From IMG/VR virus record IMGVR_UViG_3300045988_052724, positions 125,818 to 189,817 of that record: DNA of 64,000 nucleotides. The stretch is one strand, 5' to 3'. The stretch is from a virus. Shown one piece after another: positions 1 to 61,252 of the stretch. Made by a program: the position numbers and the translations under genes. Within the stretch, counting starts at the first letter, position 1. Every line of letters starts with the position of its first letter. Below the pieces are notes generated by a model. The model did no database searches, was not told the DNA's origin, and worked only from the letters and a program-made list of their open reading frames with translations.

Positions 1-3000
1 ACCTAAAGCCATCCAATTAATCATAGAGTTAACCGTTTCACAATTGGCTATAGTACAACTTGTTCTAGTGTAATTACCTGCTACACAAACCTTGTCCCAG
101 TTAGTTGCAGTTGTTTTATGTGTTACTTGTACCGATATACAAGCTGTTGGGAATGCAATCGGGAAGGATTTATGTCCCGTAGAATTTGCACCTACATATG
201 CTTCACCCCATTGAATTATAAATCCGTTAGGGAATTTAACATATCCAGAAGCGTCTTTAGAAGCTGCCCAATTTGAGTTCAGTGTAAAGTCTGACAATGC
301 TTTATACCCACCAGCACCAAGTACTACATTATTATTACTACCACCTTTAGTTATATATGAACCATCGTGGTTATGGTTACTGTTTGCTTTAGAGTTAGGG
401 TCAAAGTTCTTGGTATCCCATACTTTTACCCATCCATACCAATTGTCAGTAGTATCTCTTAACGCTCTGTACCACAATCCCATACCAGCAGTCCATCCTC
501 CAGCAATTTCAACCGTACCTCCAGTACTTCTTCCAAATCCTATAACGGATGTATATGTAGTTGGTGCACCATTACTAGTTCCACTAACTGTATTATAGGA
601 GTACACATTACCTAGGTTTTGGGTTCTTCCTGTTTGTGGATTGAGGTTTCCTCTAGAATTTATATAGTTATGTGAATGGTCTGCAGGAGCGCCTCCAATA
701 TCAGCAAAAGACCATGAAACATTGGCAGAACCATTTACTGACTTAGTAGTATTACCAATAGTAAAGTTCCTAGCTGTTCCCCAATAAGAGGTAGTAATAT
801 TTGCAGTACCGTCGAAGTTAGTTCCATTAATAGAGCGGGCTATTGTAAGTCTGTCTGCACTAGCAGCATGATTGGTATAACTTGAATTAGGTCTACTAAC
901 ATTAGTGTTATAATTATTAGCCACAGTGCTTGAATAAGAAGTATTAGTAAACTGACCTGCCGATATACTACCACCATTATTAGTTACTGTATATTCAAGG
1001 CTTATATTAGTCCAATCGCTAGGTTGCCTTACTTGTACCTCCCAACTGTTGTTATTATATCGTACTATCCTAATCATATCCCAAGTACAATAAGGAGGAA
1101 GGTATAGATAACTTTGATTTAACATTGAGTCTGCAGTACCGCTATAAGCATACATTATCGCTTCAAATGGTATATCTATTACGTGCCCTTGATTGTGATT
1201 ACCTGTTATATAGTAGATTGTACCTTTGACTTTACAGCTTTGATATTGCCCTCCACCTGTACAAACATAGGTTACTATCTTCTTCCAGTTCTTGTCTGTA
1301 CCACCTCCCCATCTATCAACCCTGTATTTAGTTGAAGTAGTCCAGCCCATACTGAATGCTGCTTGGTGGTAGCCATCTAATAAATCCGCATTTAAATTAT
1401 TCCATTGTGCTGTACTACTAGATGTCATGTTAGAACCATTCCAAGTAAATCTATAGTTGTTTCCACCTCTCCATGAAGCACCCTGTTGGATAAATGCTAG
1501 TCCAGTTGCTCCGTTTAATCCTTGTAATCCAAGGCAGCCTCCGATATTACAGTCACCGAAACCGCAATCATCTCCAGCATTGTTTCTAGTACCATTAGCT
1601 AGATGTAATGCACCAGTCATAGTATCACCAGTAACATTAACATACCTACCGTCTATAATTCCAGCATAGTTATTAGTATCTAACACTCTATACCATCCAT
1701 AGTTAGTACCCCCTTGTATTCTTCTCCAGTAAATACCATCAGATGTATTTAAAGGGACTGCTATATCAGCGAAATACCCAGAACCATTTCCATGATTCAT
1801 TCTTAATATATGCCACCATTGAGCTGTTGGTCCAACATTCTGATTAGCAGCAGTACCAGCACCTAGATTTGCATTGAAGTAAGTTAATCCATTTAGTCCA
1901 AATGTTAACTGACTATTAGTAGCCAATCTCTTAGACCATTCAGCAGTACCATTTAAAGCACCAGTAAATGTTGGAGCTGTGACTGTGCCAGGGAATATTG
2001 TATTTCCATTAGCATCCAATAATGTTGCTGTCCTCTTTATGGTAGTAAATACGCCCGTGTATTGTCTTACATATATAGGTTCATCTCCATCATCACAAGA
2101 AGCTATCTCCATCCATCCTGCATTACTTGCAGTTCCCCCAAAAGCTATTCTACCATAATCGTTATCCCCACCTTGGAATCTAACTTGCCTAGTTCCAGTA
2201 GTGCTAGCTTGGTTTATTATAATATCTCCGTTCTGGGTTAAGGTTCCATTGTTAGTAATACCAGTAGTGGTAAGTAATGCAGTAAATAAACCTCCACCAA
2301 TAACATGAAGCTTCTGTGTTGGAGTTGTAGTGCCAATTCCTACATTTCCTAATCCAGTTAATACCATTTTAGCACTCATAGCCGGGTCTGTTCCAGCCTC
2401 TCCAACAGAACTCATAAAGGCTAGGTAATTATTATCATTAGTACCACTAAAGTATGGGGTTAATCCAAATTTATCACCAAAGCCATTCTCTTTCCAATAT
2501 ATAGTATTAGCACCCATTCCAAGAGTACCAGTCATGGTATCACCTGCTTTCTTTACGTAACGTCCGTCAGAATAGCTGGCGTAGTTTCCACTATGTATTA
2601 ACACAACCCAATCATTCCACTTTGAATCATCATGCCTTCTGTATTTAATCGTGTTTGTATCATAATGGAAAGCTAACTGAGTATTTCTTGTTGGAACGTC
2701 ACCTAGACTTAGCACAGTAGTATTTGCAGATAGGGTAACATCATCCGTAGGTTTAGGGTCAATAGTAACTACGTTTCCATTTCCAAAATATTGGTTTACA
2801 GTAGTGTATCTACCTCTAAGCCAAGAACGCATAACACCCTCTCTTCCACTAAATCCTGCCAAATGTACTCCATCAAGCAAATCTGCATTTAAATTATTAA
2901 CAAGCGTATTGCTTGAAACTATCAACGGTGATAACCCTGTGGCAACAGTTGACATAAACCTAGGTGCTCTCACATCATTTGGAGTGACACGTAAAACTAG

Positions 3001-5436
3001 CTTGTTGTTATGGTCTACGACACCAAATCCTGCACTATCCGTACTACCTCCTCTAAGGTTTCCTATATACCAGTATGTGTCATACCAGTTGAACCTTAAT
3101 CCGTTTCTTATAGAAGTTAACCCACCATCATCGTTCCTGATAACTTCGTTATCTTTATAGATATTGGTAATATCACAATTTTCCAATCCCTTGAATACGA
3201 TTGAGCTGGAAGTAGATGCGGATGTAAGTGTTCCAGTCATAGTATCGCCAGTCTTCTTAAGGTAACGTCCATCGAGAGTTCCTGCATAATTAGTAACATC
3301 TAATATATCTACCCAAGAACCATAGGAAGTAGAATCATTACCTGTACGATACTTTAGCCCACGTATGCCTTTTGTTGGTAATGCAAGTTGTGTAACCCAG
3401 GTCTTGTTTCCTACAATTCCCATATTAGAACCACCCCAGTTCATAGATATGATATGCCACCAGTTGCCGTTTATACCTGACTTTGTAGTCATTCCCATGT
3501 AATAACCATCGTAAGTGGCTGGGTCAAAGTCTTCTTCCTTGTAGAATATAAAGCTTTTAGCGTGTAACCCATCAAGTAAATCAGCGTTAAGATTACTTAC
3601 TAAGGTATTACTAGCTACAACTAATGGTGCAGTTCCACTAGCTACTGTAGATATGATAGGAGTTGTAAACGTCTTGCTACCATTAATAGTCTGTTCAGTA
3701 TCTAATGTTACATATATAGGGTGTGTATGGTCTGTTGTTGATACTTTTTTACCATCACTATATAGACAGTTATCAGCACCAACGTATACGTATCTATTAC
3801 TGTATGTTTGAGGACTTTCAGTCTGTGATTCTGCTCCGATTAAGAATAACTTTGTGTTTATTAAATCAGTAGCTCCAGCTGTATTTACAGTATCATTTCC
3901 AGGGTCTGCAGCTAAAGTTAAATTACCTTGGTTATCTGGAGTAATAAACATATTGTCTCCAGCAATGAAATTTACTTTCTTAGCTTCATAGCCATCAAAC
4001 GATGTAAACTCGACTCCCTTTACTTGGAATGATAATGCATGATTCAATCTATCAGGTTTATTGGCCCATGTAGGTGTGCCAGACTCATTGATTACTAGCA
4101 TTTGCCCTACTGAACCGTTTGGTAGACCTTTTATCAACTTACCCGTTATACTATCAAACACTGCCAGTTGTCCTATTGTAGAGGATGAAGGTCCACTAAC
4201 AACTCCAGTAGTATTAGTCTGAACATATGTCCACTTCTTAGAAACCTCTTCCCAGTTAGTACCATCAGAAGCAGCAGTAGCTTCCTTACATATAAGTAAG
4301 TCACCAACCTCTACCGACACTCCGTTTATATACCCCACACTATCCCTATAAGCACCATTACCAAAGGTTACAACATAAGTATTACCTACATCTGCCATTG
4401 GTGTATAAGTACCTGGAGAAGATATACCAGCCTCTAATGCTCCCTTAAATAGCATAGCATTATTAGAGCCGAGGATACTATCAGCATAACTCTTAGCAGT
4501 TTCTATAGCGTTCCATACCATTAATGGGGATGCTGCAATAGCTGCAACTACGTTAGTGTCATTTATATTCTCATTATCACTTGATGGGTCCGGCTTTCTA
4601 CTTAATATGTCCTGCAGTTTTACGTGACCATATAATTTAGTAGAAGCACCACCATATTCTGGTTTTAGAGATAAGTGAATCTTAGGAGTAGCTTGTCCTT
4701 CTACATCTCCCTTTAGCTTACCAATAATATAACCATCTAATACAGAAACGTCTCCATGATTAACTGTTACTGCTCCATCGGAAGTCATTCCTCCTGCTAT
4801 AGTTATTCTCTGTGTAGCATCATTAAATGTCAAACCATTAGCCTTTCTAACTTGAGATGTGTCCATATTATTATTAGCTTCATTATAGGATAATAATACG
4901 TTCCTCTCAGCCATCTGATTAGATGGAGCTACCTGTTCAACATAGTCCCTAATCTCAATATTATGATTCTCTGCAAATGTTATATGTCCTGTAGCATCTA
5001 CTATAAAGTTTGGAACAACAAACACACTAGCATTTCCTAGATTAGTTGATTGTCCATAAGAGCCTGAAGCTACACCGCTCTCCATGTGTAATAACTTCCT
5101 ATTAGAAGCATCCCACTTCAAAGGAGGTTCAGTATCCACTCTATTAAGTGCATTACTGCTGATAATAATTCTATTACCATCACCTTTTCTAAGGCTAATA
5201 CTGTCACCTGTAGGAGTTAGCAGGAAGAAGCTATTTCCTATTTGAACCTTAACAGAGCCGCTAACTTCTGATACTTCTATACTTGGATAGCCAATACTAA
5301 AGTAAGTACCACAAGTCCACATCTCTCTAGTATCCTCAATGAACACTACTGGATTAAGCCCTTCTGGTATTGTGGGTATTAGTGGCTCAAACTCTTCTTT
5401 CTTTCTAGCATATACAATCTTCTTATTTATTATCAT
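1..5436 (-). CDS. Large tail fiber / receptor-binding protein; C-terminal end runs off the left window edge (1812 codons in window)
   Basis: ATG at 5436-5434 (ATGATAATAAATAAG). Hand translation of the minus strand stays open to base 1 (ends ...NSMINWMALG). It is missing from the ORF track only because no stop lies in the window. Repeated modules GDTMTG(T/A)L and SNTLV(S/N)NLNADLLDG(L/V/Y)H are typical of phage fibers. Confidence 0.8.
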   Translation of the reverse strand, partial: MIINKKIVYARKKEEFEPLIPTIPEGLNPVVFIEDTREMWTCGTYFSIGYPSIEVSEVSGSVKVQIGNSFFLLTPTGDSISLRKGDGNRIIISSNALNRVDTEPPLKWDASNRKLLHMESGVASGSYGQSTNLGNASVFVVPNFIVDATGHITFAENHNIEIRDYVEQVAPSNQMAERNVLLSYNEANNNMDTSQVRKANGLTFNDATQRITIAGGMTSDGAVTVNHGDVSVLDGYIIGKLKGDVEGQATPKIHLSLKPEYGGASTKLYGHVKLQDILSRKPDPSSDNENINDTNVVAAIAASPLMVWNAIETAKSYADSILGSNNAMLFKGALEAGISSPGTYTPMADVGNTYVVTFGNGAYRDSVGYINGVSVEVGDLLICKEATAASDGTNWEEVSKKWTYVQTNTTGVVSGPSSSTIGQLAVFDSITGKLIKGLPNGSVGQMLVINESGTPTWANKPDRLNHALSFQVKGVEFTSFDGYEAKKVNFIAGDNMFITPDNQGNLTLAADPGNDTVNTAGATDLINTKLFLIGAESQTESPQTYSNRYVYVGADNCLYSDGKKVSTTDHTHPIYVTLDTEQTINGSKTFTTPIISTVASGTAPLVVASNTLVSNLNADLLDGLHAKSFIFYKEEDFDPATYDGYYMGMTTKSGINGNWWHIISMNWGGSNMGIVGNKTWVTQLALPTKGIRGLKYRTGNDSTSYGSWVDILDVTNYAGTLDGRYLKKTGDTMTGTLTSASTSSSIVFKGLENCDITNIYKDNEVIRNDDGGLTSIRNGLRFNWYDTYWYIGNLRGGSTDSAGFGVVDHNNKLVLRVTPNDVRAPRFMSTVATGLSPLIVSSNTLVNNLNADLLDGVHLAGFSGREGVMRSWLRGRYTTVNQYFGNGNVVTIDPKPTDDVTLSANTTVLSLGDVPTRNTQLAFHYDTNTIKYRRHDDSKWNDWVVLIHSGNYASYSDGRYVKKAGDTMTGTLGMGANTIYWKENGFGDKFGLTPYFSGTNDNNYLAFMSSVGEAGTDPAMSAKMVLTGLGNVGIGTTTPTQKLHVIGGGLFTALLTTTGITNNGTLTQNGDIIINQASTTGTRQVRFQGGDNDYGRIAFGGTASNAGWMEIASCDDGDEPIYVRQYTGVFTTIKRTATLLDANGNTIFPGTVTAPTFTGALNGTAEWSKRLATNSQLTFGLNGLTYFNANLGAGTAANQNVGPTAQWWHILRMNHGNGSGYFADIAVPLNTSDGIYWRRIQGGTNYGWYRVLDTNNYAGIIDGRYVNVTGDTMTGALHLANGTRNNAGDDCGFGDCNIGGCLGLQGLNGATGLAFIQQGASWRGGNNYRFTWNGSNMTSSSTAQWNNLNADLLDGYHQAAFSMGWTTSTKYRVDRWGGGTDKNWKKIVTYVCTGGGQYQSCKVKGTIYYITGNHNQGHVIDIPFEAIMYAYSGTADSMLNQSYLYLPPYCTWDMIRIVRYNNNSWEVQVRQPSDWTNISLEYTVTNNGGSISAGQFTNTSYSSTVANNYNTNVSRPNSSYTNHAASADRLTIARSINGTNFDGTANITTSYWGTARNFTIGNTTKSVNGSANVSWSFADIGGAPADHSHNYINSRGNLNPQTGRTQNLGNVYSYNTVSGTSNGAPTTYTSVIGFGRSTGGTVEIAGGWTAGMGLWYRALRDTTDNWYGWVKVWDTKNFDPNSKANSNHNHDGSYITKGGSNNNVVLGAGGYKALSDFTLNSNWAASKDASGYVKFPNGFIIQWGEAYVGANSTGHKSFPIAFPTACISVQVTHKTTATNWDKVCVAGNYTRTSCTIANCETVNSMINWMALG

Positions 5437-5438
5437 TC

Positions 5439-5813
5439 CTATATGATTTGAGTTGTTAATAATTCATCAAACCTCTGAGCTGTTTGAGCAACAGTTAGAC
5501 CTTTATCTATAAAGTTACCTGACCACCCAATAAGTAAGTCAGTACCGTCTAGTACTGGATTATTCTTAATAGCCTTCTTATTTACAGTCTTATTGCCCAG
5601 GTTCTCGATTTCTTTTTGCATATTATCAAGCTTCTCTTGAATCTTATTCACAATGTCGATAATCTCTTTATTATCAAGGAATACAACCCATTGTTCCCCA
5701 TCAAATAAGAGCATCTTACTGTTATCTTTAATCCAAATGTGGTAAATGGTTGGAGGGATTTGGTCACCCCTCCAGAAATTTACCTGCTTGTTATTTACCA
5801 TTTCATTTGCCAT
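5439..5813 (-). CDS. Hypothetical protein, 124 aa, between two fiber genes (possible fiber adaptor/assembly factor)
   Basis: ORF track. Its stop lies 2 nt before the start of the downstream fiber gene. Confidence 0.5.
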   Translation of the reverse strand: MANEMVNNKQVNFWRGDQIPPTIYHIWIKDNSKMLLFDGEQWVVFLDNKEIIDIVNKIQEKLDNMQKEIENLGNKTVNKKAIKNNPVLDGTDLLIGWSGNFIDKGLTVAQTAQRFDELLTTQII

Positions 5814-5814
5814 T

Positions 5815-8643
5815 CTATTCTAATACTATCGTTTTACTTAAATCAAGACCTTGCACCAACTTCTCTAATGCTGTAAGTCTTTCAACTAAGGCTTCAGTTC
5901 CAGTGGAAGAAGATGTTATAAATTCCTTATTAAATGTATATGTCGTTTTAGTTCCTACTACTAATGTAAATGTTAACTTCAAGTCCTGAAGTTCATCATA
6001 GTGAAACATCATTACCACTTCTACAGTTCTAACATCATCAGTGTCTTTGGTATCTGTAGCTGTCTTTCTATAAGCCGTTACAAATTTTAAAGTTGCATAT
6101 TCTAATGTTACTAATCTAGCCTTGGATAAAGCTACTATAAAATCGTGTGCATCTTCAGCCTCAGTATAATAATCAGATAGGTTCTCAGACAGATAAAGAG
6201 CCTTCTCAATATGCATGACATAGCCCTGCACATCTGACTTAAATACATTAAGTAGTCCTATCTGTTCTTTTACGTATGTATCATTATAATTCTCGAGTGA
6301 TTGTAACTTAGCTTTGTTCTCATTAGTAAAGTCATTAGTAGACAATCCTTTACCTTCAACCTTATCAACCTTAGTACTAATGTCTGGAAGTTCACTCTTT
6401 AGAGCATAATTACTTAAATCAGTTTCTGGAATATTAGCTATAGCTTGCTTGACATACTCTTCAGTAGCTAAGCCTACTATACTAGGAATTTCAGGTTTCC
6501 CAACTAAGTCTTGATACTCACCGGAGAATAATTCACTTCTATCTGCTTTGCCACCTAATGTAGTATTTATTGCAGCGATGTCTTTATTATTCTTTATAAT
6601 TGCATCTCCGACCTCTTTGAATGTGTTATAAGAAGGGTCAGAATCTTGAGTAAGTATGTCAAACTGCTGTCTAGTAAAGTTGTTAGCTATCTCAAGTATT
6701 TCTGCTGCTGTCCCAGCCCTTTCTGCACCTAACTCTTCGAGGGTATATGTAGGTTTATTAGGTTGTTTAGCCCACTCAGGAACAGTTGGGTCAGTTTCAG
6801 TATAGCTAGTTAGAAACCCTTTACTATTCAATTCTTCTTCAGTAACTAAGTTATTTGGAATTGTTGTTAAGTAATGTTTATCATTCTCTAACTGAGATAC
6901 TTTAGTAGGTACATCCTCTATATCGGCTTTATTACTAACATCAGGGATTTCACTCCTATCTGCTTTTGTGTTAACCTTCTCATCAACTTCTTTAATCAGT
7001 TCTCTAACACTAGTATCACTATAGTTAGTTAGCCCTTTTAGTTTATTCTTCTCTTCTAATGTAAAGCTTTGCTCAGATAAGCCCATTCCTTGGACTTTGT
7101 CTACCTTGTTGTTCCAATTTTGTATATCAGTAGTGTTTATAGTTGCAGCTGCACTAGCTATAAATGCCGGCTCAATCTCTTCTGTTAAATACCCTCGGCT
7201 ATCAAGCTCATGCTTTGTAACATATTCGTCTGGAATATCTGTAATGTAGTGAGAGTCATTCTCTAGTTGAGATACCTTAGTAGGTACGTCTTCTATGTCT
7301 GCCTTACCTGATACATCTGGAATTAGTGCTTTAACTTCATCCTTAGTATAATAATTATTAAGCTGAATGTCTCCTGATTCTATGTCCTGCAACTTCTTAT
7401 CAATTTCTTCCTTAGTGTAGACAGTATACTTATCAACTTTAGATGCTAAAAGCTCTTTAATTGTAGTAGTGTCAAACCCTTTAGAATCAAATCCAGCTTG
7501 ACTTAATATTTCTATTGTTGTTTCCCCAAGCCCTGCATTAGCACTCTTGAATATATAGTATATATTACCAAATATTTCCTGTGTACCTAAGAGTCTAAAT
7601 CCACCAATAATATTACTAACTGCCAACACTGCACTGGAGCCATTTGGAATCATAACGTATATGTACTCACTGCCATTTGCAGTAGTAGTAAATATATTGT
7701 CAATAGTCTTGTTTAACTTAGTATAGTCTGGTGAGGTTCCATAGTAGTTAGGATATTTAATGTCAAATGTTACTACCTTTACAGCAGTAATATCCTCATA
7801 TTTATATCGTAACGTAATAACCATAGAAGTAGTCATTCCAGCAAATGTATACTGCCTAGCTTCAGGCTTAAGAGTTACACCATTAATTGTCTGCTCAGTT
7901 ACATCTTTGTAGTATTCCCAAGTTACAGTTACATCAGTAGGCTCATCACCATAACTCATATACTCTGGGTCTACTGATATGGCTTTAATATTTTCATCTA
8001 TAGCTGCTGCTTCAATTCTAGCATTAACCCATTCAGTAGATGCAATCCTATTAGAACTATCTGTCATTAATGGTAATGTAGTAGTTGGAGTTCCAGTAAA
8101 CTTAGGTGAGTATATGTCAGCTTTGTTATTTAATCTTATTTCAATTTCACACGCCCATTGAGCAAGTTTTAGATTTATTTCATCAATTACCTTATTAATA
8201 TCAAAGGCTATTGAATCAGTCACAAAGGTATATAAATCTTTTTGATTAGACAAGTTACCTTTGATGTTTCCCCACTTTAGAGCATATTCATCTGCTATAC
8301 CAAGATTAATTCTGGCTATAGTTCTCTGATACTCATCAGTTAACTCTGAGAATAGATTCTCCTTTTGGAATCCATCATCCCCGCCAGTACACCCATAATA
8401 TTTAGAAGTATCACAATCATCCTTAATACAGATGTGGTCTACTCCTTCCTCTTCTACTTTTACACTGTCTATCTTGTCTATTGTAATAACACCATAGTCA
8501 GCACAGATTCCTTCTACCTCTTCCTTCTCAATAACTCCGTCAATTATTTTAGTATCGGGCTTTATATTGGAAATAGAATGAGGATAATCGGGTAAAATGG
8601 GGGCATCCTGTTCTTGTTCATCAAGACGTATAAACTCTGCCAT
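5815..8643 (-). CDS. Tail fiber-like protein, 942 aa, with internal tandem repeats
   Basis: Duplicated blocks PDVS(G/N)KADIEDVPTKVSQLEND(S/K)HY and KVDKV.G.GLS...FT.E.K.KL, a fiber-repeat motif also present in the DGR target protein. Confidence 0.7.
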   Translation of the reverse strand: MAEFIRLDEQEQDAPILPDYPHSISNIKPDTKIIDGVIEKEEVEGICADYGVITIDKIDSVKVEEEGVDHICIKDDCDTSKYYGCTGGDDGFQKENLFSELTDEYQRTIARINLGIADEYALKWGNIKGNLSNQKDLYTFVTDSIAFDINKVIDEINLKLAQWACEIEIRLNNKADIYSPKFTGTPTTTLPLMTDSSNRIASTEWVNARIEAAAIDENIKAISVDPEYMSYGDEPTDVTVTWEYYKDVTEQTINGVTLKPEARQYTFAGMTTSMVITLRYKYEDITAVKVVTFDIKYPNYYGTSPDYTKLNKTIDNIFTTTANGSEYIYVMIPNGSSAVLAVSNIIGGFRLLGTQEIFGNIYYIFKSANAGLGETTIEILSQAGFDSKGFDTTTIKELLASKVDKYTVYTKEEIDKKLQDIESGDIQLNNYYTKDEVKALIPDVSGKADIEDVPTKVSQLENDSHYITDIPDEYVTKHELDSRGYLTEEIEPAFIASAAATINTTDIQNWNNKVDKVQGMGLSEQSFTLEEKNKLKGLTNYSDTSVRELIKEVDEKVNTKADRSEIPDVSNKADIEDVPTKVSQLENDKHYLTTIPNNLVTEEELNSKGFLTSYTETDPTVPEWAKQPNKPTYTLEELGAERAGTAAEILEIANNFTRQQFDILTQDSDPSYNTFKEVGDAIIKNNKDIAAINTTLGGKADRSELFSGEYQDLVGKPEIPSIVGLATEEYVKQAIANIPETDLSNYALKSELPDISTKVDKVEGKGLSTNDFTNENKAKLQSLENYNDTYVKEQIGLLNVFKSDVQGYVMHIEKALYLSENLSDYYTEAEDAHDFIVALSKARLVTLEYATLKFVTAYRKTATDTKDTDDVRTVEVVMMFHYDELQDLKLTFTLVVGTKTTYTFNKEFITSSSTGTEALVERLTALEKLVQGLDLSKTIVLE

Positions 8644-10587: not shown

Positions 10588-10965
10588 TTATACGTTGAAG
10601 TCAGCTCTTACTTTAGTTTTGATTTCTCCTACCAGTGTAAGATAATCTAGGTATTTCTGTCTATCAGTTTGATTATCAGATAAACCTAAAACAATACTAT
10701 TGGAGCTGTTAATTAAATCAAACTCTTCATCTTGGTCTACATACTGTCTAATAATAGCTTTAATGCATTCTTTGTGGTCTGGTTGACCATGTAGATGAAC
10801 TTGTATATATGTCCACCTTGTTTCCTTCGTTACATCTTCTGTTTCTGGGTCTGTAACATTAACCTCTTTTGATTTAATATCATAGTTATAGTAATATGTA
10901 CCATTACCTAATTTCTCTATTAAGTCTGGCTGCACATCCATTTCTATTCTTCTTGGTTCTAACAT
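10588..10965 (-). CDS. Hypothetical acidic protein, 125 aa; overlaps the 3' end of the RT gene by 62 nt
   Basis: ORF track. Its acidic composition argues against an Avd-type DGR accessory protein. Confidence 0.4.
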   Translation of the reverse strand: MLEPRRIEMDVQPDLIEKLGNGTYYYNYDIKSKEVNVTDPETEDVTKETRWTYIQVHLHGQPDHKECIKAIIRQYVDQDEEFDLINSSNSIVLGLSDNQTDRQKYLDYLTLVGEIKTKVRADFNV

Positions 10966-12160
10966 AAGGTCTTATTTTAAAATTTACTGGGAATGAATAT
11001 CTGGTTAGAGAGTAGAATAGATTCCTACTCTTACTCTCAAAGTAATAGGATTTATTATTGTATACAAGGTTAACTCTAGAACACTTACTATAGCCAACTA
11101 TATCTACAATATGAATGTACTTGTTATAAAATCTTGAAATATTAGATTTCTTCCCATCCCAATTAGAGAATCTCAAACCTGTATCTCTTTGAATCTTCCT
11201 TAGTAGATTCTTAGAATTACAAAACTTTAGCCAACCAAAATATGATTGCATTCTCCTTCTTAATTCTTGTTTATCAATCTTGCCTGATTGATACCTTCTA
11301 ATAAGCTTGAATAATCTAATCTTAATTGACTTCCTTAATAATACATGGGTATGATAGAACCTATAACCTACAAAGTCTACACCTCTATCATCTACTGGGA
11401 ATATTTGGTAATTTGATTTTAACCTTAAATTTAGAACCTCCTTTAAGTACATCTTAATTGCTATAAGTATGTTTCTCAAGAAGTTCTTATCACTGCTGAG
11501 AATTACAATATCATCAGCATACCTGAAATAGAATTTACACTTTAACTCCTCCTTGACCCAATGGTCAAAGTAAGCTAAATATAGATTAGCAAAGAACTGA
11601 GATAAGTAATTACCTATAGGAACCCCATCGGCTGAATAGATAATCCCAATAAGTAATGTTAGAAGATATTTGTCCTTTATCTTCTTTTTAATTATATCAC
11701 ATAATATATCGTGGTTTACAGATGGGTAAAACTTCCTAACATCCATCTTCAAACAATATATAGTTTCTTCTGGATGTTCAATTAATGCAGTCTTTAAGTC
11801 ATGAGCTACATTATGAATACCTCTATTCTTAATACAAGAGTAAGTCTGCTTAATAAATATTTTAGTCCAAATAGGTTCCATCACGTTCATTATAGCGTGA
11901 TGTGTTATTCTATCTGGATAGTATGGTAGTCTAAATATCAACCTTTCTTTAGGTTCATATACTTTAAAGGTACTATATTCAGAGGTTTCATATACCAAGT
12001 CCCTTAGCTGCTCAGATAACCTCTCATTCTCATTTTGTCTATTTCTATCGTGCTTAACGATTCCCCATCTAATTGATTTATTCTTTCTAGCCTTATCATC
12101 AGCTATTTCGATATTCTCTATATCATAAACCTGTTCATGTAAATAACCTATACGTTTCAA
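10904..12160 (-). CDS. DGR-type reverse transcriptase, 418 aa
   Basis: YADDIVILS catalytic motif. IGNYLSQFFANLYL carries the SQ motif characteristic of DGR RTs. Lies 145 nt downstream of the template repeat. Confidence 0.9.
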   Translation of the reverse strand: MKRIGYLHEQVYDIENIEIADDKARKNKSIRWGIVKHDRNRQNENERLSEQLRDLVYETSEYSTFKVYEPKERLIFRLPYYPDRITHHAIMNVMEPIWTKIFIKQTYSCIKNRGIHNVAHDLKTALIEHPEETIYCLKMDVRKFYPSVNHDILCDIIKKKIKDKYLLTLLIGIIYSADGVPIGNYLSQFFANLYLAYFDHWVKEELKCKFYFRYADDIVILSSDKNFLRNILIAIKMYLKEVLNLRLKSNYQIFPVDDRGVDFVGYRFYHTHVLLRKSIKIRLFKLIRRYQSGKIDKQELRRRMQSYFGWLKFCNSKNLLRKIQRDTGLRFSNWDGKKSNISRFYNKYIHIVDIVGYSKCSRVNLVYNNKSYYFESKSRNLFYSLTRYSFPVNFKIRPYVRTKKNRNGCAARLNREIR

Positions 12161-12305
12161 GTCTTATATATTTATTATGGAAGCGTTCGAGACTTAACCT
12201 ACTAACACCCAGTTATTAAATACTACGTTGTCTTTTGCCAAGAGGCAAGGGTACTATTTAGACTGTAAAATGAAACCAAATTACCTAAATAAAGAAATAT
12301 ATAAT

Positions 12306-12408
12306 AAGCCTACATTGGAATTGACATTGCTGACTCCATTGTTAGAATTGAAGTTACTAAGACTGGCATTACTACCATTATTAGCGTTGCTGCTAACGAT
12401 GAGTGTTT
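12306..12408 (-). repeat. DGR template repeat (TR)
   Basis: 103 nt, aligning with 12516-12618 at a constant offset of 210 nt. All 18 mismatches fall at TR adenines on the coding strand. Read in the VR frame the TR is AAY/AGY-rich (AGC AGC AAC GCT AAT AAT GGT AGT AAT ...). Confidence 0.9.
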
Positions 12409-12487
12409 GTAGTAATTTGAATTAATCAGCACCAACAGAAGTGTAGGTAAATAGCACCCCTAATCTCGTATTTTATCTGTTTATGTA

Positions 12488-14428
12488 TTATTGAGTTATT
12501 CTGTTTAATGTTCTGAAGCCCACATTGGAACCGACATTGCCGACCCCATTGTTAGAATGGAAGTGACTAAGACCGGCATCACCACCATTAGAAGCGCCGC
12601 CGCCAACGATGAGAGTTCTTAAAGATGTACTAGCAGCATTGCACCAATGATAGTCACACATATAAGTAGTAGCTGAACCACCGACTACTGAAGGTATAAT
12701 TTCACCCTTACTTCCAAGGTCAAAATCCTTTGTATATCCATCAGACACTATTTCTTTACCTGCAACAGTCATTTTACCTTTAGCAGTATTATCATCTCCA
12801 AATGCACTCGGATTAGATGTAGTATACACACTACTTGGTTGATTAGCTGCTGTTCTTTCTAAGATAATACCATCTAGGTTTGTCCAAATGTCTCCGAATG
12901 GATTGTCAAATCCCCTCCACCTTGGAACTTTAAATGTCTTAGTGGGGACTGTTGCAGATTCATTCACTATGGTCTCTGGAATAACTAACTCCTTAATTCC
13001 AGTGAAGTTACCAATATCATTACAATATCCGCATGGTGTTATTGGATAAGTCCCATTATATCCAGACCACCCATTAGCATTGTTGTTCCAATCAGTAATT
13101 CCGGGACCAAGTCCTCCTTGATGATAACCATCAGCTGTTAACTCAGCGTTATAAGTAGCTTGTGAATTAAATGTTGCATATTCAATAACCCAAGCCCAGT
13201 AGAATATCCACTTGTAATATTCATAGCATAGCATTTCTGAACCAGCATTAGTGGCATAAGTTCTCATGTTTGCTCTTGAAATATTAGTTCTTGGTTTACC
13301 TAAGTCACTTCTAAATTTATCAGATGATAGATATGTATCGTTAGCTGTTCTATTACCACCACCTCTAAATTGAGCTGTAGTGTTAACTACTGATACAGCC
13401 TTATTACCAGTCTGGTTCACCGTACTCCTATAGGCATCTAACAGCATTTCTGGAATCTCTACCCATGTATCATCACATTTAACTGTAGAAATTCTAACCC
13501 ATCTCTTATTACCTTCAACTCCAGACTTACCATAGAATTTGGGAATGTGTACTCTTACAGTACCATCAGTCCCATCAAGGACAGAAGGGGTTCCATCAGC
13601 TTTCTTAGACCAATCGTTAGGGTCTAAATAATAATTAACTTTAGCACCATTAGCTACACAACCCTTATATTGAGATTGCACTGGTAATGACTTATGTAGC
13701 AATGGATTACCAATTCTAGTTAATGTGGGGTCTGCTACTGTAGAATCCCATTCAACTCCATAGGAGTAAATATCTTCCAATCCAGTTAAATCAATACCAG
13801 GCTCTACATCTTTCCATTCTCCAGTACCATCGCCACTGTTGACTAACACCTGCCCTACTGTACCACCAGCAGGTAGATGTTTATTTCCAGCTGTAGTTGG
13901 ATGGGTATAGTTATTAGCATTGGCAGCAATACCTTGCAATTTATTCTTCTCACTTGTTGTATAATCATTGGTAGATAATTGCTTACCATCAACCTTATCA
14001 ACCTTTAGAGCAAGTGCACTAGTAGTTCTACCTTCTACTCCTTCAATTGCTTCATTAACCTCGGCCTTAGTATAATAATCTTTTAAGTTTACGTCTACGT
14101 GTTTATTTCCTAAGAACTCCCAGCCAGTCTTTTGTTCTGTAATAAGATAAATATATTCATCATATACATCATTTGTTCTTGAGCTTTCGTTAGGAATTAG
14201 GTAGATTTTATTTACATCTCCCTTTGCAGGTAATTCAGTAACAACTACTGTCTTACCGCCAGCATTATTAATTGCTTCTATAACCCATGCCTCTGTTGCT
14301 AACCCTTCTTTGATTTTAGAAATAGTAGCTGACTTATTACTTCCGTTCTGTACTATAGGAACTAACTCATCTCCAGCAAGGGTGTTAGTAGCATCCATTT
14401 GAGATATTTTTACTCCTGTTGCTGCCAT
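12488..14428 (-). CDS. DGR target: tail fiber / receptor-binding protein with a variable C-terminal (C-type-lectin-like) domain, 646 aa
   Basis: Contains the VR. The N-terminus carries the fiber repeat KVDKVDGKQLSTNDYTTSEKNKLQ. The C-terminus is Gly/Asn-rich and ends in FRTL, as in DGR variable proteins. Confidence 0.85.
   Translation of the reverse strand: MAATGVKISQMDATNTLAGDELVPIVQNGSNKSATISKIKEGLATEAWVIEAINNAGGKTVVVTELPAKGDVNKIYLIPNESSRTNDVYDEYIYLITEQKTGWEFLGNKHVDVNLKDYYTKAEVNEAIEGVEGRTTSALALKVDKVDGKQLSTNDYTTSEKNKLQGIAANANNYTHPTTAGNKHLPAGGTVGQVLVNSGDGTGEWKDVEPGIDLTGLEDIYSYGVEWDSTVADPTLTRIGNPLLHKSLPVQSQYKGCVANGAKVNYYLDPNDWSKKADGTPSVLDGTDGTVRVHIPKFYGKSGVEGNKRWVRISTVKCDDTWVEIPEMLLDAYRSTVNQTGNKAVSVVNTTAQFRGGGNRTANDTYLSSDKFRSDLGKPRTNISRANMRTYATNAGSEMLCYEYYKWIFYWAWVIEYATFNSQATYNAELTADGYHQGGLGPGITDWNNNANGWSGYNGTYPITPCGYCNDIGNFTGIKELVIPETIVNESATVPTKTFKVPRWRGFDNPFGDIWTNLDGIILERTAANQPSSVYTTSNPSAFGDDNTAKGKMTVAGKEIVSDGYTKDFDLGSKGEIIPSVVGGSATTYMCDYHWCNAASTSLRTLIVGGGASNGGDAGLSHFHSNNGVGNVGSNVGFRTLNRITQ
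12516..12618 (-). repeat. DGR variable repeat (VR) at the 3' end of the target gene
   Basis: Encodes ...LIVGGGASNGGDAGLSHFHSNNGVGNVGSNVGF, ending about 25 nt before the stop of the 646-aa ORF. Confidence 0.9.
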
Positions 14429-40282: not shown

Positions 40283-40818
40283 GGGCTTGCATGGTTTTGA
40301 CAGGCGATTACAAGTTATAAGGACGTGTAGAGTTCGTACCAACTCTTATAAAATGATACACAATTTTAAGTGGCAACACTGAAGTAAGAATGGCAGCTTA
40401 AGCTGTGGCTTATTAATATTAACGTATTAGTATAGTCGGGTTAACGGAGAAGACCTAGAAACAGAAGAGGTGTGGGAAGAAGCATATAGGGCAGCCCACT
40501 TAACTTGAACGCCAAAGGTTAGTAGAGCTGAGATTCTCCACAATGTGTATGGTAGAGACGCAAGGGCTATGCCTAAAAGTACTACTCGTTCTCCAACGTA
40601 AATGGAGTGGTGGAGAGCCGACTTCGGTCAGCCCAGGTTTGGTAGTTTGTAAATTAGCTTTAAGTGTACTGACTTCATCTATGATAAGTCTGGTTCTGAG
40701 TAAGACTAATAAAACTATCTACATGCTAGAACTCACTAGCTGATGTAATAAAAATGAGACACACGTTATCCTTGTAATAAGGGTTGTTTGGACGGCGGTT
40801 CGACTCCGCCCAAGTCCA
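40283..40818 (+). ncRNA. ssrA: tmRNA (SsrA), unusually long at about 536 nt
   Basis: The 5' strand GGGCTTG pairs with CAAGTCC at 40811-40817, giving a G3:U70 wobble (Ala identity). T-arm ggcgg-TTCGACT-ccgcc. GGTTTTGACAGG resembles the conserved GGATTCGACGGG. Candidate tag ORF GGC AAC ACT GAA GTA AGA ATG GCA GCT TAA at 40372-40401 encodes (A)GNTEVRMAA and starts about 90 nt from the 5' end. Confidence 0.75.
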
Positions 40819-40851
40819 CAAACATTATGTTTAACTAATCGACAATTTGAA

Positions 40852-41380: not shown

Positions 41381-41632
41381 ATGAGAAGAGTATATATTCA
41401 AATTATTGACCCGATTAATGGTACATATATAAATGCACGCCATGAATACCTCAATGCACATATGCAAGTCGTAGAGTCTACTCTAAGACAGTATGGCATA
41501 CGTAGCTCAGATTGTACACTTAAAACTGTGTCTAATATCGGTAAGGAGGTTCCTGGAATGCCCAAATACTCATTGTATCAAGGGTTGGTAAATGATACTT
41601 CCAAACTAGTAAATATAACTGTTGTAGGATAA
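41381..41632 (+). CDS. Hypothetical protein, 83 aa
   Basis: ORF track. Confidence 0.4.
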   Translation: MRRVYIQIIDPINGTYINARHEYLNAHMQVVESTLRQYGIRSSDCTLKTVSNIGKEVPGMPKYSLYQGLVNDTSKLVNITVVG

Positions 41633-41952
41633 CTCCTACTGCGAAACACGAAACTGACCTGATGAGTTAGGCTACATAGTGCGCACTATGTGGTTGACTT
41701 AAACGTGTATAAATAAAAGTTGGAACCTATTACGTATAGATTGTATTCTGCCCTCTGCGGGTGGATGAGGTGCAACTCCTCAATGTAATATATAAGGAGA
41801 GAATCCTTATATCTCTTGTAGTATCTATGTATAACTTGATTAATAGTCAGCATAACAAGAGTAGGTCGTCAGTGAAATTATTAAAAGATAGATTATGTAG
41901 GTAAAGTACGCTATATAATTATCTTATTTATGTATAAATAAGATATAAAACA
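41633..41952 (+). ncRNA. 320-nt ORF-free structured leader upstream of the TROVE-like gene
   Basis: Hairpins acatagtg-cg-cactatgt, tgagg-tgcaact-cctca, taagga-gagaa-tcctta. Contains cacgaaactgacctgatgagtt. Confidence 0.35.
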
Positions 41953-45114: not shown

Positions 45115-45208
45115 AAGGGGATACGCAAATGGTAAAGCGGCAGTCATTAGGGACTGTGGTATAATATTCTAGGTGTATACATTGAGGGTTCGATTCCCTC
45201 TCTCCTTA
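45115..45208 (+). tRNA. Class II tRNA-like gene (long variable arm), irregular anticodon loop (6 or 8 nt, contains TAG/TTA); possibly Leu-derived or a pseudogene
   Basis: Acceptor aagggga/tctcctt, T gaggg-TTCGATT-ccctc, variable arm gtata...tatac, anticodon arm cagtc-attagg-gactg. Confidence 0.4.
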
Positions 45209-45238
45209 CAATTCTTTGTAAAAATTACATTTGTCAGC

Positions 45239-60443: not shown

Positions 60444-60845
60444 ATGAAAGTTGAGAATTTACTTGACCATCCTATTGACTTCACAACCGTTGAGGGATGC
60501 AAATCGTTCAACGAGTGGGTTAACAAAGACATATCTAATGCCTTCTACTTAGGGTTCCTAAGAGAAGAATTTAGTGAGTATGTCCCTAAGATAAACGAGA
60601 GCGAAGAGGGAGTTCAGTTTATAAAGAGTATGGTTACAGCAGGTGTAAAGGCTAAAAAGTATCTAAAAGAACTCGCTAGATTGATGGAGCCTTACTTACA
60701 TAGTAAAGAAGGGTTTATAATCCTGGATATGGTTAACGATGTACTAGAGAAAGTATCTTTAGAGAAGAAGGATGATGTCTATGGAGTTGCCTATGTATTA
60801 GGTGTTTATGTTAACTACTTATTTACTACTCAAGCTGAGGCATGA
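60444..60845 (+). CDS. Hypothetical protein, 133 aa
   Basis: ORF track. Confidence 0.45.
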   Translation: MKVENLLDHPIDFTTVEGCKSFNEWVNKDISNAFYLGFLREEFSEYVPKINESEEGVQFIKSMVTAGVKAKKYLKELARLMEPYLHSKEGFIILDMVNDVLEKVSLEKKDDVYGVAYVLGVYVNYLFTTQAEA

Positions 60846-61252
60846 GTTCTTATATTGTTTATACTGACGGTGCATATTCCAATACCAGAAATCAAGGTGG
60901 TATAGGGTTTGTCATTTTGAAAGAAGGTAAAGAAGTTGCTAGATATAGTAAAATGTATAAGAATACTACAAACCAAAGAATGGAGCAGATGGCAGCAATA
61001 GTTGCCCTTGAATCTATTACTACACCTTCAGAAGTTACCATAGTTTCTGATTCTCAGTATGTGGTCTGCACATACACTAAGAACTGGAAGAGAAAGGCGA
61101 ATCTGGACTTGTGGAAGAGATTTGATGCAGCAATCGCATTCCATACTAAGGTTGACTTCAGTTGGACTAAGGGTCATGCTGAAGACCAATATAACAAGAT
61201 TTGTGATAAGCTGGCGCAAGAAGCTAGTAAGACTATAGAGATTACTAATTAA
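60842..61252 (+). CDS. rnhA: Ribonuclease HI
   Basis: VYTDGAY, NQRMEQMA, VSDSQYV, TKGHAEDQYNKICDKLA (DEDD pattern). Confidence 0.8.
   Translation: MSSYIVYTDGAYSNTRNQGGIGFVILKEGKEVARYSKMYKNTTNQRMEQMAAIVALESITTPSEVTIVSDSQYVVCTYTKNWKRKANLDLWKRFDAAIAFHTKVDFSWTKGHAEDQYNKICDKLAQEASKTIEITN

Follow-up and report, generated by a model that had tools for sequence, protein, structure and literature searches.

The stretch of viral DNA analyzed here (positions 125,818 to 189,817 of the IMG/VR record IMGVR_UViG_3300045988_052724; 64,000 nucleotides, referred to below as the window and numbered from its first letter) carries a diversity-generating retroelement (DGR) on its minus strand. In coding direction the locus comprises the gene for a 646-amino-acid (aa) tail-module protein with a variable repeat (VR) near its 3' end, a template repeat (TR), a structured spacer, the gene for a 418-aa reverse transcriptase (RT) and a small open reading frame (ORF) for an acidic protein of 125 aa; the whole is very compact, with about 3.5 kb between the RT stop codon and the target start codon (Table 1). 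The first-pass annotation of this DNA had given the order as target-VR-TR-RT on the minus strand, and the coordinates of the ORFs and repeats agree with it. Target, TR and RT follow in this core order along a single strand, and neither avd nor HRDC or MSL was found, which corresponds to architecture A1 of Wu et al.; the canonical avd-TR-RT type, their architecture B, is characterized by a nearby Avd gene, and none was found in the window. We read the locus, with a probability of about 0.85, as a complete and active Avd-independent DGR of the Bacteroidota-phage type, working by the mechanism set out below.

Table 1. Features of the DGR cassette and their positions in the window.
Feature	Position	Strand	Remark
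Target, 646-aa tail-module protein	12488-14428	-	phrog_5302 and homologues
VR	12516-12618	-	ungapped match to TR
TR	12306-12408	-	103 nt, 35 adenines
TR-RT spacer, 145 nt, conserved structured RNA	12161-12305	-	covariance model R1, alignment A6
Long-range duplex, upstream strand	12449-12461	-	41-53 nt 5' of TR, in the VR-TR gap
Long-range duplex, downstream strand	12248-12260	-	abuts the P1 hairpin
P0 helix	12295-12304 with 12164-12173	-	
P1 hairpin, TTGCC-AAGA-GGCAA	12235-12248	-	
A-rich stretch, AAAAGACAA	12228-12236	-	3' arm of P1 runs into it
P3	12204-12210 with 12179-12185	-	encloses P2 at 12189-12199
RT, 418 aa, TTG start	10904-12160	-	IGNYLSQ, YADD
RT core, aa 1-328	11177-12160	-	N-terminal extension, fingers, palm with IGNYLSQ and YADD, thumb
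RT C-terminal extension, aa 329-418	10907-11176	-	beyond the bRT alignment and the RT PHROG
Acidic 125-aa ORF, phrog_11557	10588-10965	-	62-nt overlap with RT 3' end

Repeats, reverse transcriptase and diversification in relatives

The TR and VR align without gaps at an offset of 210 nucleotides (nt), and the same pair was recovered by an independent repeat search. All 18 mismatches between them lie at a T of the TR on the plus strand, hence at an adenine of the coding strand (minus), and all 68 non-adenine positions are the same in both repeats; given 35 adenines in 103 nt, the hypergeometric probability of this distribution is 8.3e-11. Realignment and a recount therefore reproduced the repeat coordinates, the offset and the adenine-only differences of the first-pass annotation. 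Read in the VR frame, the TR runs AGC AGC AAC GCT AAT AAT GGT AGT AAT GCC AGT and has AAY at 11 of its 33 codons, as its earlier description as AAY-rich implied. The VR forms the last ~34 codons of the target ahead of a short constant tail, with its end 26 nt from the stop codon, and falls within the last 44 codons of the gene. The 3' ends of the two repeats are the same apart from one A>G, with no GC-rich block, and a search of both strands of the window returned no second VR.

For the target there is a match to phrog_5302 ('tail protein') at 2.4e-89. Its identity is 58% with the 'tail protein' of cr7_1 and 29% (E = 2e-44) with the tail-collar fibre that serves as DGR target in crAssphage LMMB, in agreement with the earlier placement of the cassette in a tail module. 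The 646-aa protein has no Pfam match and no sequence match in the PDB, and the label 'tail fibre' comes from homology and annotation. The LMMB target has been assigned to CLec3 (PMC7290462), and by homology the target in the window may likewise have a C-type lectin fold.

The RT ORF and its IGNYLSQ and YADD motifs were confirmed as first described. Its best sequence match in the PDB is the Bordetella phage enzyme bRT (8ub7_A, 328 aa; phmmer E = 8.4e-44, aa 6-328 aligned with 7-324), and it contains Pfam RVT_1. An AlphaFold2 (AF2) model with a pLDDT of 86 superimposes on 8ub7_A in Foldseek with a TM-score of 0.95 and an rmsd of 1.6 Å. By sequence and predicted fold, the protein is a DGR-type enzyme. 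The homologous RT start is TTG in 75 of 77 relatives and ATG in the LMMB-like and short-RT relatives examined, the latter being elements whose RTs lack the C-terminal extension described below.

A scan of IMG/VR yielded 457 loci with relatives of the RT, and the best 80 of these (69-99% identical) were retrieved. Nearly all retrieved loci with upstream DNA share the cassette. Their TR/VR pair is ~100 nt long and has 16-28 mismatches, which fall wholly or almost wholly on TR adenines; the offset between VR and TR is 189-212 nt, and the spacer measures 138-149 nt. Eight genomes, namely the window and seven others with flanks 98-99% identical to it (L011 in the cassette only), form a near-identical set. 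The TR is 99-100% identical across the seven genomes (100% in L002-L006 and L011), and all eight VRs differ from one another, with identities of 82-88%. Variation among these VRs touches 25 of the 35 A-sites versus 2 of the 68 non-A sites (Fisher P = 9e-14), and one of the two variable non-A columns is a C>T in L007 that is also found in the TR of that genome, as expected if the TR overwrites the VR. The first-pass annotation had held that invariant TR-adenine positions, or an RT broken in relatives, would speak against it; the positions are polymorphic, and the RT ORF is intact and full-length in the 29 closest loci. On the strength of these differences between assemblies, the DGR is currently active in nature.

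The cassette might alternatively be a relic, in which the TR/VR differences record past activity and diversification is over. Some database gene calls in close relatives are indeed short C-terminal fragments of the RT; many of these fragments, however, are likely due to in-frame TAG codons in recoded relatives. The eight distinct VRs with differences almost exclusively at A-sites and the 29 full-length RT ORFs also argue against a relic, which we regard as the most improbable of the alternatives considered here. So does L011, in which the TR, spacer and VR-TR gap are 99-100% conserved though the N-terminal part of the target is 74% identical. Compared with window positions 12161-13220, the divergence in L011 lies in the 600 nt of target upstream of the VR, and the core of the DGR seems to be transferred as a module from one tail-protein body to another.

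Amber codons occur within the RT genes of other relatives. In L054-L078 (RT at ~5001-6224) there are 3-5 in-frame TAG codons at conserved positions, mostly 127, 158, 292 and 404, and the RT of cr7_1 (L001) has several in-frame stops and is annotated as truncated at 319 aa. The TR/VR pairs of these loci still differ almost exclusively at adenines, which makes it evident that amber recoding allows translation of the RT. Amber codons have likewise been reported in seven RT genes of Zeta crAss-like phages (PMC12386605).

A conserved RNA around the template repeat

The spacer between TR and RT is conserved in blocks across the crAss-type and short-RT lineages. The hairpin TTGCC-AAGA-GGCAA that the first-pass annotation had seen there was located (Table 1), and it is one element of a larger structure. 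A covariance model built on four seeded helices finds one match per locus, always between TR and RT, and also matches short-RT loci that were left out of its building. Changes on both sides are seen in 20 of 26 pairs, and 85% of alignment cells are paired versus 33-63% with slid partners; none of 500 shuffles reaches the observed values, though the alignment was fitted to the model, which somewhat favours the structure. The hand-seeded model was needed, as RNAalifold on a raw MAFFT alignment returned 6 pairs only.

A long-range duplex encloses the TR. It consists of 13 bp in which GGGGUGCUAUUUA, in the VR-TR gap, is paired with UAAAUAGUACCCU, in the spacer, and the minimum-free-energy fold of the 316-nt RNA recovers it (single sequence, z = -2.9). 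An equivalent duplex of 12-16 bp, with clade-specific sequence, is present in most of 66 unique related elements. The mean duplex energy is -16.8 kcal/mol for cognate flanks, -10.4 kcal/mol for non-cognate flanks and -7.7 kcal/mol for shuffled controls; in a permutation test on flanks of 60 nt and 50 nt from 12 clades, 0 of 20000 permutations were as low as the cognate mean.

A further helix, P0, pairs spacer nucleotides 2-11 with ten nucleotides ending 3 nt ahead of the RT start codon. Cognate pairing is preferred here too (P = 0.001), with compensatory changes in L094, L126, L135 and L172. P0 adjoins the last base of the TR, and 5 nt separate the TR end from the last A-to-N change. This makes P0 a candidate for the template:primer duplex, an assignment that is speculation. 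No Avd-binding stem-loop lies directly 3' of the TR, the segment in question pairing instead with the far end of the spacer as P0. In the region 12158-12173 (minus strand), the 3' strand of P0 stops 3 nt short of the TTG start, so folding of the DGR RNA could occlude initiation of RT translation.

The spacer also resembles a catalogued RNA. Rfam RT-17 (RF03020) aligns over its full model length with 12159-12252 at 27.7 bits (E = 1e-3), taking in the P1 hairpin and the second stem-loop, and three short-RT relatives score above its gathering threshold (L171, 57.7; L147 and L166, 43.7). As judged by this alignment, the spacer RNA of the window is a diverged RT-17 relative that Rfam's own cut-off leaves outside the family. 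When first described, RT-17 was an orphan motif without assigned function, found near RT genes (Weinberg et al. 2017, PMC5737381); in BPP-1 the interval from TR to RT contains its sibling RT-10 (PMC5737381). For the Bordetella DGR RNA, a preprint describes a cPRT Stop, a Thumb Ring and a bRT-binding element (bioRxiv 10.1101/2023.10.23.563531); by analogy, the elements described here may have the roles of the cPRT Stop and bRT-binding elements.

The C-terminal extension of the RT and the absence of Avd

The window has 77 ORFs of 70-250 aa, and none of them matches Avd (PF05635, TIGR02436, four-helix-bundle) in scans of Pfam, with families listed down to E = 0.015, or NCBIfam, at E ≤ 0.01. The interval between VR and RT contains no ORF able to encode Avd, and the VR-TR gap of 107 nt leaves no room for an avd gene; the first-pass annotation, which had reported no Avd accessory gene and no small basic helical ORF between VR and RT, was right on both counts. 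No avd gene lies in the cassette of the sampled loci of this RT lineage either. Published work points the same way. An avd-less cassette of order TG-VR-TR-RT (TG, target gene) was described in crAssphage LMMB and placed in lineage 3 (Morozova et al. 2020, PMC7290462); lineage 3 is without avd, and whole-genome profile searches of avd-less DGRs found none (Wu et al. 2018, PMC5758913); and avd is absent from 16 of 18 Zeta crAss-like DGRs, with AVD genes in Lera and ct1yV3 (PMC12386605).

It is conceivable that an Avd-like protein is encoded outside the window or supplied by the host, the element being a canonical DGR with a non-adjacent accessory gene. The window covers part of a genome (related contigs span 94-187 kb), Avd is so poorly conserved that profile searches can miss it, and the two Zeta phages just named do have AVD genes. 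The ORF scans of the window, the whole-genome searches, the lack of avd in most Zeta and in LMMB-type complete genomes, and an RNA whose segment 3' of the TR pairs with the far spacer end rather than forming an Avd-site stem-loop make this highly improbable.

The RT of the cassette continues ~90 aa past the end of bRT, with a C-terminal barrel domain of about 75-90 aa. This extension is basic (pI 10.4) and is predicted to fold as a small beta-barrel of order b-b-b-a-b (aa ~348-396) followed by a disordered basic tail, with AF2 pLDDT values of 79-91 in the full model and above 90 for the core in a domain-only model. It is conserved in all full-length relatives, in LMMB (431-aa RT) and in cr7_1, and thus in three crAss lineages. 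An exhaustive HMMER search with the extension against 1.84 billion representative proteins gave only 50 matches, nearly all at the C-terminal end of the protein and mostly in short proteins (three are 321-417 aa long), and reached no free-standing distant family. A word-indexed homologue search with the extension alone returned nothing but C-terminal fragments of RTs, and a fold search of BFVD returned RT C-termini only. Its weak structural neighbours are OB or SH3-like barrels that bind nucleic acids.

The nearest RTs without the extension are 316-339 aa long and 53-57% identical to the window RT; those of their contigs that look near-complete are ~34-43 kb, far below the size of a crAss-like genome. 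All 24 short-RT loci have a phrog_19665 protein of ~100-140 aa inside the cassette. Its gene lies directly downstream of the RT in 20 of them, most overlapping the RT stop codon, behind a homologue of the acidic ORF in two, and between VR and TR in the other two. The VR-TR interval is the usual location of avd. The diversified target in short-RT loci (L146-L173; for example L151, 2073-2489) is only ~137 aa long (phrog_11581), and some of these loci have two tandem phrog_11581 paralogues and a VR-TR offset of ~615 instead of ~195 nt.

Elsewhere the phrog_19665 domain is part of the RT itself. The C-terminus of the Hankyphage RT (aa 327-434) is a fused phrog_19665 domain (E = 1e-22), and in LoVEphage, where the RT is split into two ORFs, the domain is fused to a thumb-containing fragment in the second. 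The domain in Hankyphage (L174; BK010646.1, 3477-3800) has a methionine as its first residue (MRSFKDL...), in line with where the free-standing proteins start, and it looks like a fusion of a once separate ORF. A full-length profile alignment of the window RT with the Hankyphage RT continues through the C-terminal domain, and the extension in the window occupies the same position as the clear phrog_19665 domain of Hankyphage. Profile-profile comparison of the extension with phrog_19665 aligned the whole domain over 64 columns at P = 1.3e-4 (probability 54%), and other alignments gave P values of 1e-3 to 4e-3. On this sequence evidence the extension is probably, with moderate confidence, homologous to the phrog_19665 family.

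The extension may thus perform the RNA-positioning job of Avd, with a related phrog_19665 protein doing so in the sister short-RT elements. Extended to the lineage as a whole, covering crAss-like phages, Hankyphage, LoVEphage and the phages represented by ~35-kb contigs, the proposal is that a phrog_19665-related basic beta-barrel, fused or adjacent, does the job of Avd together with an RT-17-type RNA that retains the cPRT-Stop and RT-binding elements but lacks the Avd-binding stem-loop. We put this generalization forward tentatively, at somewhat less than even odds. If true, it would add to the accessory factors of DGRs a second class, so far unrecognised, and would explain how 'Avd-independent' DGRs work.

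It is also possible that the extension has nothing to do with replacing Avd and is a lineage-specific decoration (serving, for example, in oligomerisation, virion association or DNA target binding during cDNA integration), the RT core and the RNA being sufficient. About 20% of DGR RTs have C-terminal extensions of unexplained role (PMC5758913), the extension finds no significant structural match in the PDB, and the Zeta study ascribed differences at the RT C-terminus to thumb variability (PMC12386605). The module is nonetheless always present in this RT lineage, whether fused to the RT or encoded next to it by a gene that in many cases overlaps the RT stop; it is basic, its weak neighbours are barrels that bind nucleic acids, and the sampled cassettes have no avd gene. 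We therefore consider a mere decoration rather unlikely, though it deserves attention.

The acidic ORF that overlaps the 3' end of the RT gene matches phrog_11557 at 2.7e-15, with no fold or family annotation found beyond that; its pI of 4.7 bears out its earlier description as acidic. A Y-family match is present in nearly all loci of the window's clade, 54 of 77 having a called ORF that overlaps the end of the RT, and a homologue stands right behind the RT in cr7_1 and in the short-RT loci L160, L163 and L164 (E = 5e-16 to 8e-5). Such a protein could be the accessory factor, in the manner of the small acidic CH1 proteins of lineage 3a, instead of or besides the C-terminal domain of the RT. 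Its overlap with the RT stop in the window's clade and in cr7_1, its place directly behind the extension-less RTs of three short-RT loci, and a pI equal to that reported for CH1 (PMC5758913) would fit that role. CH1 proteins are, however, 160-169 aa long against 125 aa, a comparison made by description only. Moreover, LMMB-like cassettes do not have the ORF, nor do 21 of the 24 short-RT cassettes, and in IAS virus it occurs without an RT or RT-17-like RNA in its neighbourhood. These gaps rule it out as a universal accessory, and as the accessory factor of this DGR it is distinctly unlikely. At most, the acidic ORF is an optional partner.

Mechanism, phage setting and comparison with known systems

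In the mechanism that we propose for this Avd-independent DGR, an RNA of at least ~310 nt would be transcribed from the minus strand; it would begin upstream of 12461 and extend into the RT gene. The TR (12408-12306) would be looped out by the 13-bp duplex, formed by the segment 41-53 nt upstream of it and the spacer segment next to the hairpin and A-run; farther downstream would follow a second stem-loop (P3/P2) and then helix P0, which would tie the start of the spacer to the nucleotides just before the RT start. The 418-aa RT, with its bRT-like core and basic C-terminal beta-barrel, would bind this RNA and copy the TR into cDNA with misincorporation opposite adenines. The cDNA would then replace the VR (12618-12516), recoding up to ~20 residues near the C-terminus of the target and presumably altering receptor binding by the tail protein. 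By analogy with the Bordetella DGR, we infer transcription of the TR with its flanks, self-primed adenine-mutagenic cDNA synthesis and replacement of the VR.

Several observations weigh against this reading. Diversification is deduced from differences between assemblies, and an Avd beyond the window is excluded by the literature on related genomes only. Kinship between the extension and phrog_19665 depends on profile-profile P values of 1e-4 to 4e-3 together with position; tests of profile against sequence (hmmscan, hmmsearch) were negative in both directions, and the best Foldseek match of the extension in the PDB had an E-value of 0.14. The 27.7 bits of the window spacer fall below the RT-17 gathering score of 40.4. 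A duplex of the BPP-1 kind, between the TR 3' end and the interior of the spacer, was considered and rejected as the site of priming, as it shows no cognate preference (P = 0.30). Neither a GC-rich initiation of mutagenic homing (IMH) site nor a hairpin was found 3' of the VR, where the DNA fold of the flank is no better than shuffles (z = +0.48).

The phage that carries the cassette is crAss-like as judged by sequence: the DNA and protein matches of the window are to Crassvirales genomes, although its large terminase (TerL) is only ~30% identical to those of classified Crassvirales, and no genome close to it was found in the phage collection searched. The neighbours of the cassette are the portal, the large terminase and a tail-fibre-like protein of 942 aa, which places it within the structural module. 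At 90% identity the RT belongs to a cluster of 2,690 member sequences, a mark of a clade that is very abundant among gut phages.

Other features of the window lie apart from the cassette. On the minus strand, positions 1-5463 are occupied by a single ORF of at least 1821 aa that runs off the window start; it is missing from the ORF list, and the region looked empty for that reason. On the plus strand, 33 tRNA genes lie between 44972 and 62622, mostly arrayed at 44.9-51.5 kb. Stop-codon recoding in the window itself was considered and is not needed, the ORF-poor regions being this large ORF and the tRNA array. A tmRNA gene lies at 40283-40821 (83 bits) and a RAGATH-34 RNA at 41623-41733; tRNA array and tmRNA together make a very large translational toolkit for a phage. 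At 45115-45209 (plus strand) is a 95-nt tRNA-like gene, scoring 38 bits in Rfam, to which ARAGORN gives a four-base anticodon 'ttag'; it could be an intron-containing or suppressor-type tRNA. The ORF at 60842-61252 (plus strand) encodes RNase HI, as shown by its NCBIfam match (5e-30) and by a phmmer comparison with RnhA of E. coli (3e-25); the enzyme probably has a role in replication and could process DGR RNA:cDNA hybrids. Pfam matches in small window ORFs include a TerD-domain protein (1e-64), a protein like the ferredoxin-thioredoxin reductase beta chain (6e-15) and HNH endonucleases, an unusual cargo.

Of the characterized systems, the BPP-1 DGR (8ub7) shares with the window the RT fold (TM 0.95), adenine-specific mutagenesis and a tail-protein target with a C-terminal VR, and its spacer is of similar length (~140 nt vs 145 nt). 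Its RNA has the same order of elements, namely a TR-enclosing duplex, a stem-loop, an A-run, a single-stranded linker and an RT-binding stem-loop (bioRxiv 10.1101/2023.10.23.563531); BPP-1 has Avd and an Avd-binding stem-loop directly 3' of the TR, whereas neither was found in the window. BPP-1 differs further in that bRT is without the C-terminal beta-barrel, a GC-rich IMH and hairpin lie 3' of its VR, none having been found in the window, and its spacer RNA is Rfam RT-10 (PMC5737381) where that of the window is RT-17-like. With RT-17 (RF03020) the window RNA shares the hairpin CCUUGCC-loop-GGCAAAA, an A-rich stretch, the GUGUUAGUA...CGAACGC stem-loop and a location just upstream of an RT gene; the crAss-type RNAs have, in addition, helix P0 and the base-pairing with the segment 5' of the TR, both of which lie outside the Rfam model.

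Hankyphage (Bacteroides phage p00, PMC6199706) is, like the phage studied here, a phage of Bacteroidota with the order target-VR-TR-RT. Its RT is 31% identical to the window RT over aa 1-355 and has an add-on domain at the same C-terminal position; there the domain is an unambiguous phrog_19665 (E = 1e-22), whereas the window extension matches at profile level only. The Hankyphage target is also very large (its VR covers residues 2188-2225), and Hankyphage is a temperate, Mu-like phage; a small ORF is put forward as its Avd candidate in the Hankyphage papers. The Zeta crAss-like DGRs (PMC12386605) agree by description, with full-length RTs of ~400-414 aa, the GxxxSQ motif and tail-fibre targets; as in the window and its relatives, AVD is mostly lacking, some of the RT genes contain amber codons and the genomes are rich in tRNA genes. 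They differ in interpretation, as the differences at the RT C-terminus were ascribed there to variability of the thumb, with no separate domain (PMC12386605).

The DGR of LMMB and related Intestiviridae has the same target-VR-TR-RT order and no avd (PMC7290462), an RT 56% identical to that of the window with the same C-terminal extension (431 aa in all), a homologous target (E = 2e-44) and a homologous spacer RNA with compensatory changes. LMMB belongs to another phage lineage, as the TerL identity of ~30% between the window and classified Crassvirales indicates; its VR-TR offset is 270 nt rather than 210 nt, its cassette is without the acidic 125-aa ORF, and its target is 486 aa rather than 646 aa long. 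The element is therefore ordinary for its setting: tail-diversifying DGRs without avd have already been described in several crAss-like groups, and the lack of Avd is established knowledge for crAss-like phages and not unusual in this lineage. Since Wu et al. 2018 it has been an open point how DGRs without Avd make cDNA in a templated and self-primed way, and a conserved RT domain, its likely free-standing relatives and a covarying RNA provide concrete, testable parts for such systems; a two-component mutagenesis system of RT and RNA is also of possible interest for DGR engineering. What is added here to the known systems is a conserved basic beta-barrel of the RT, with probable kinship to phrog_19665, and the placement of the TR inside a conserved, covarying RNA.

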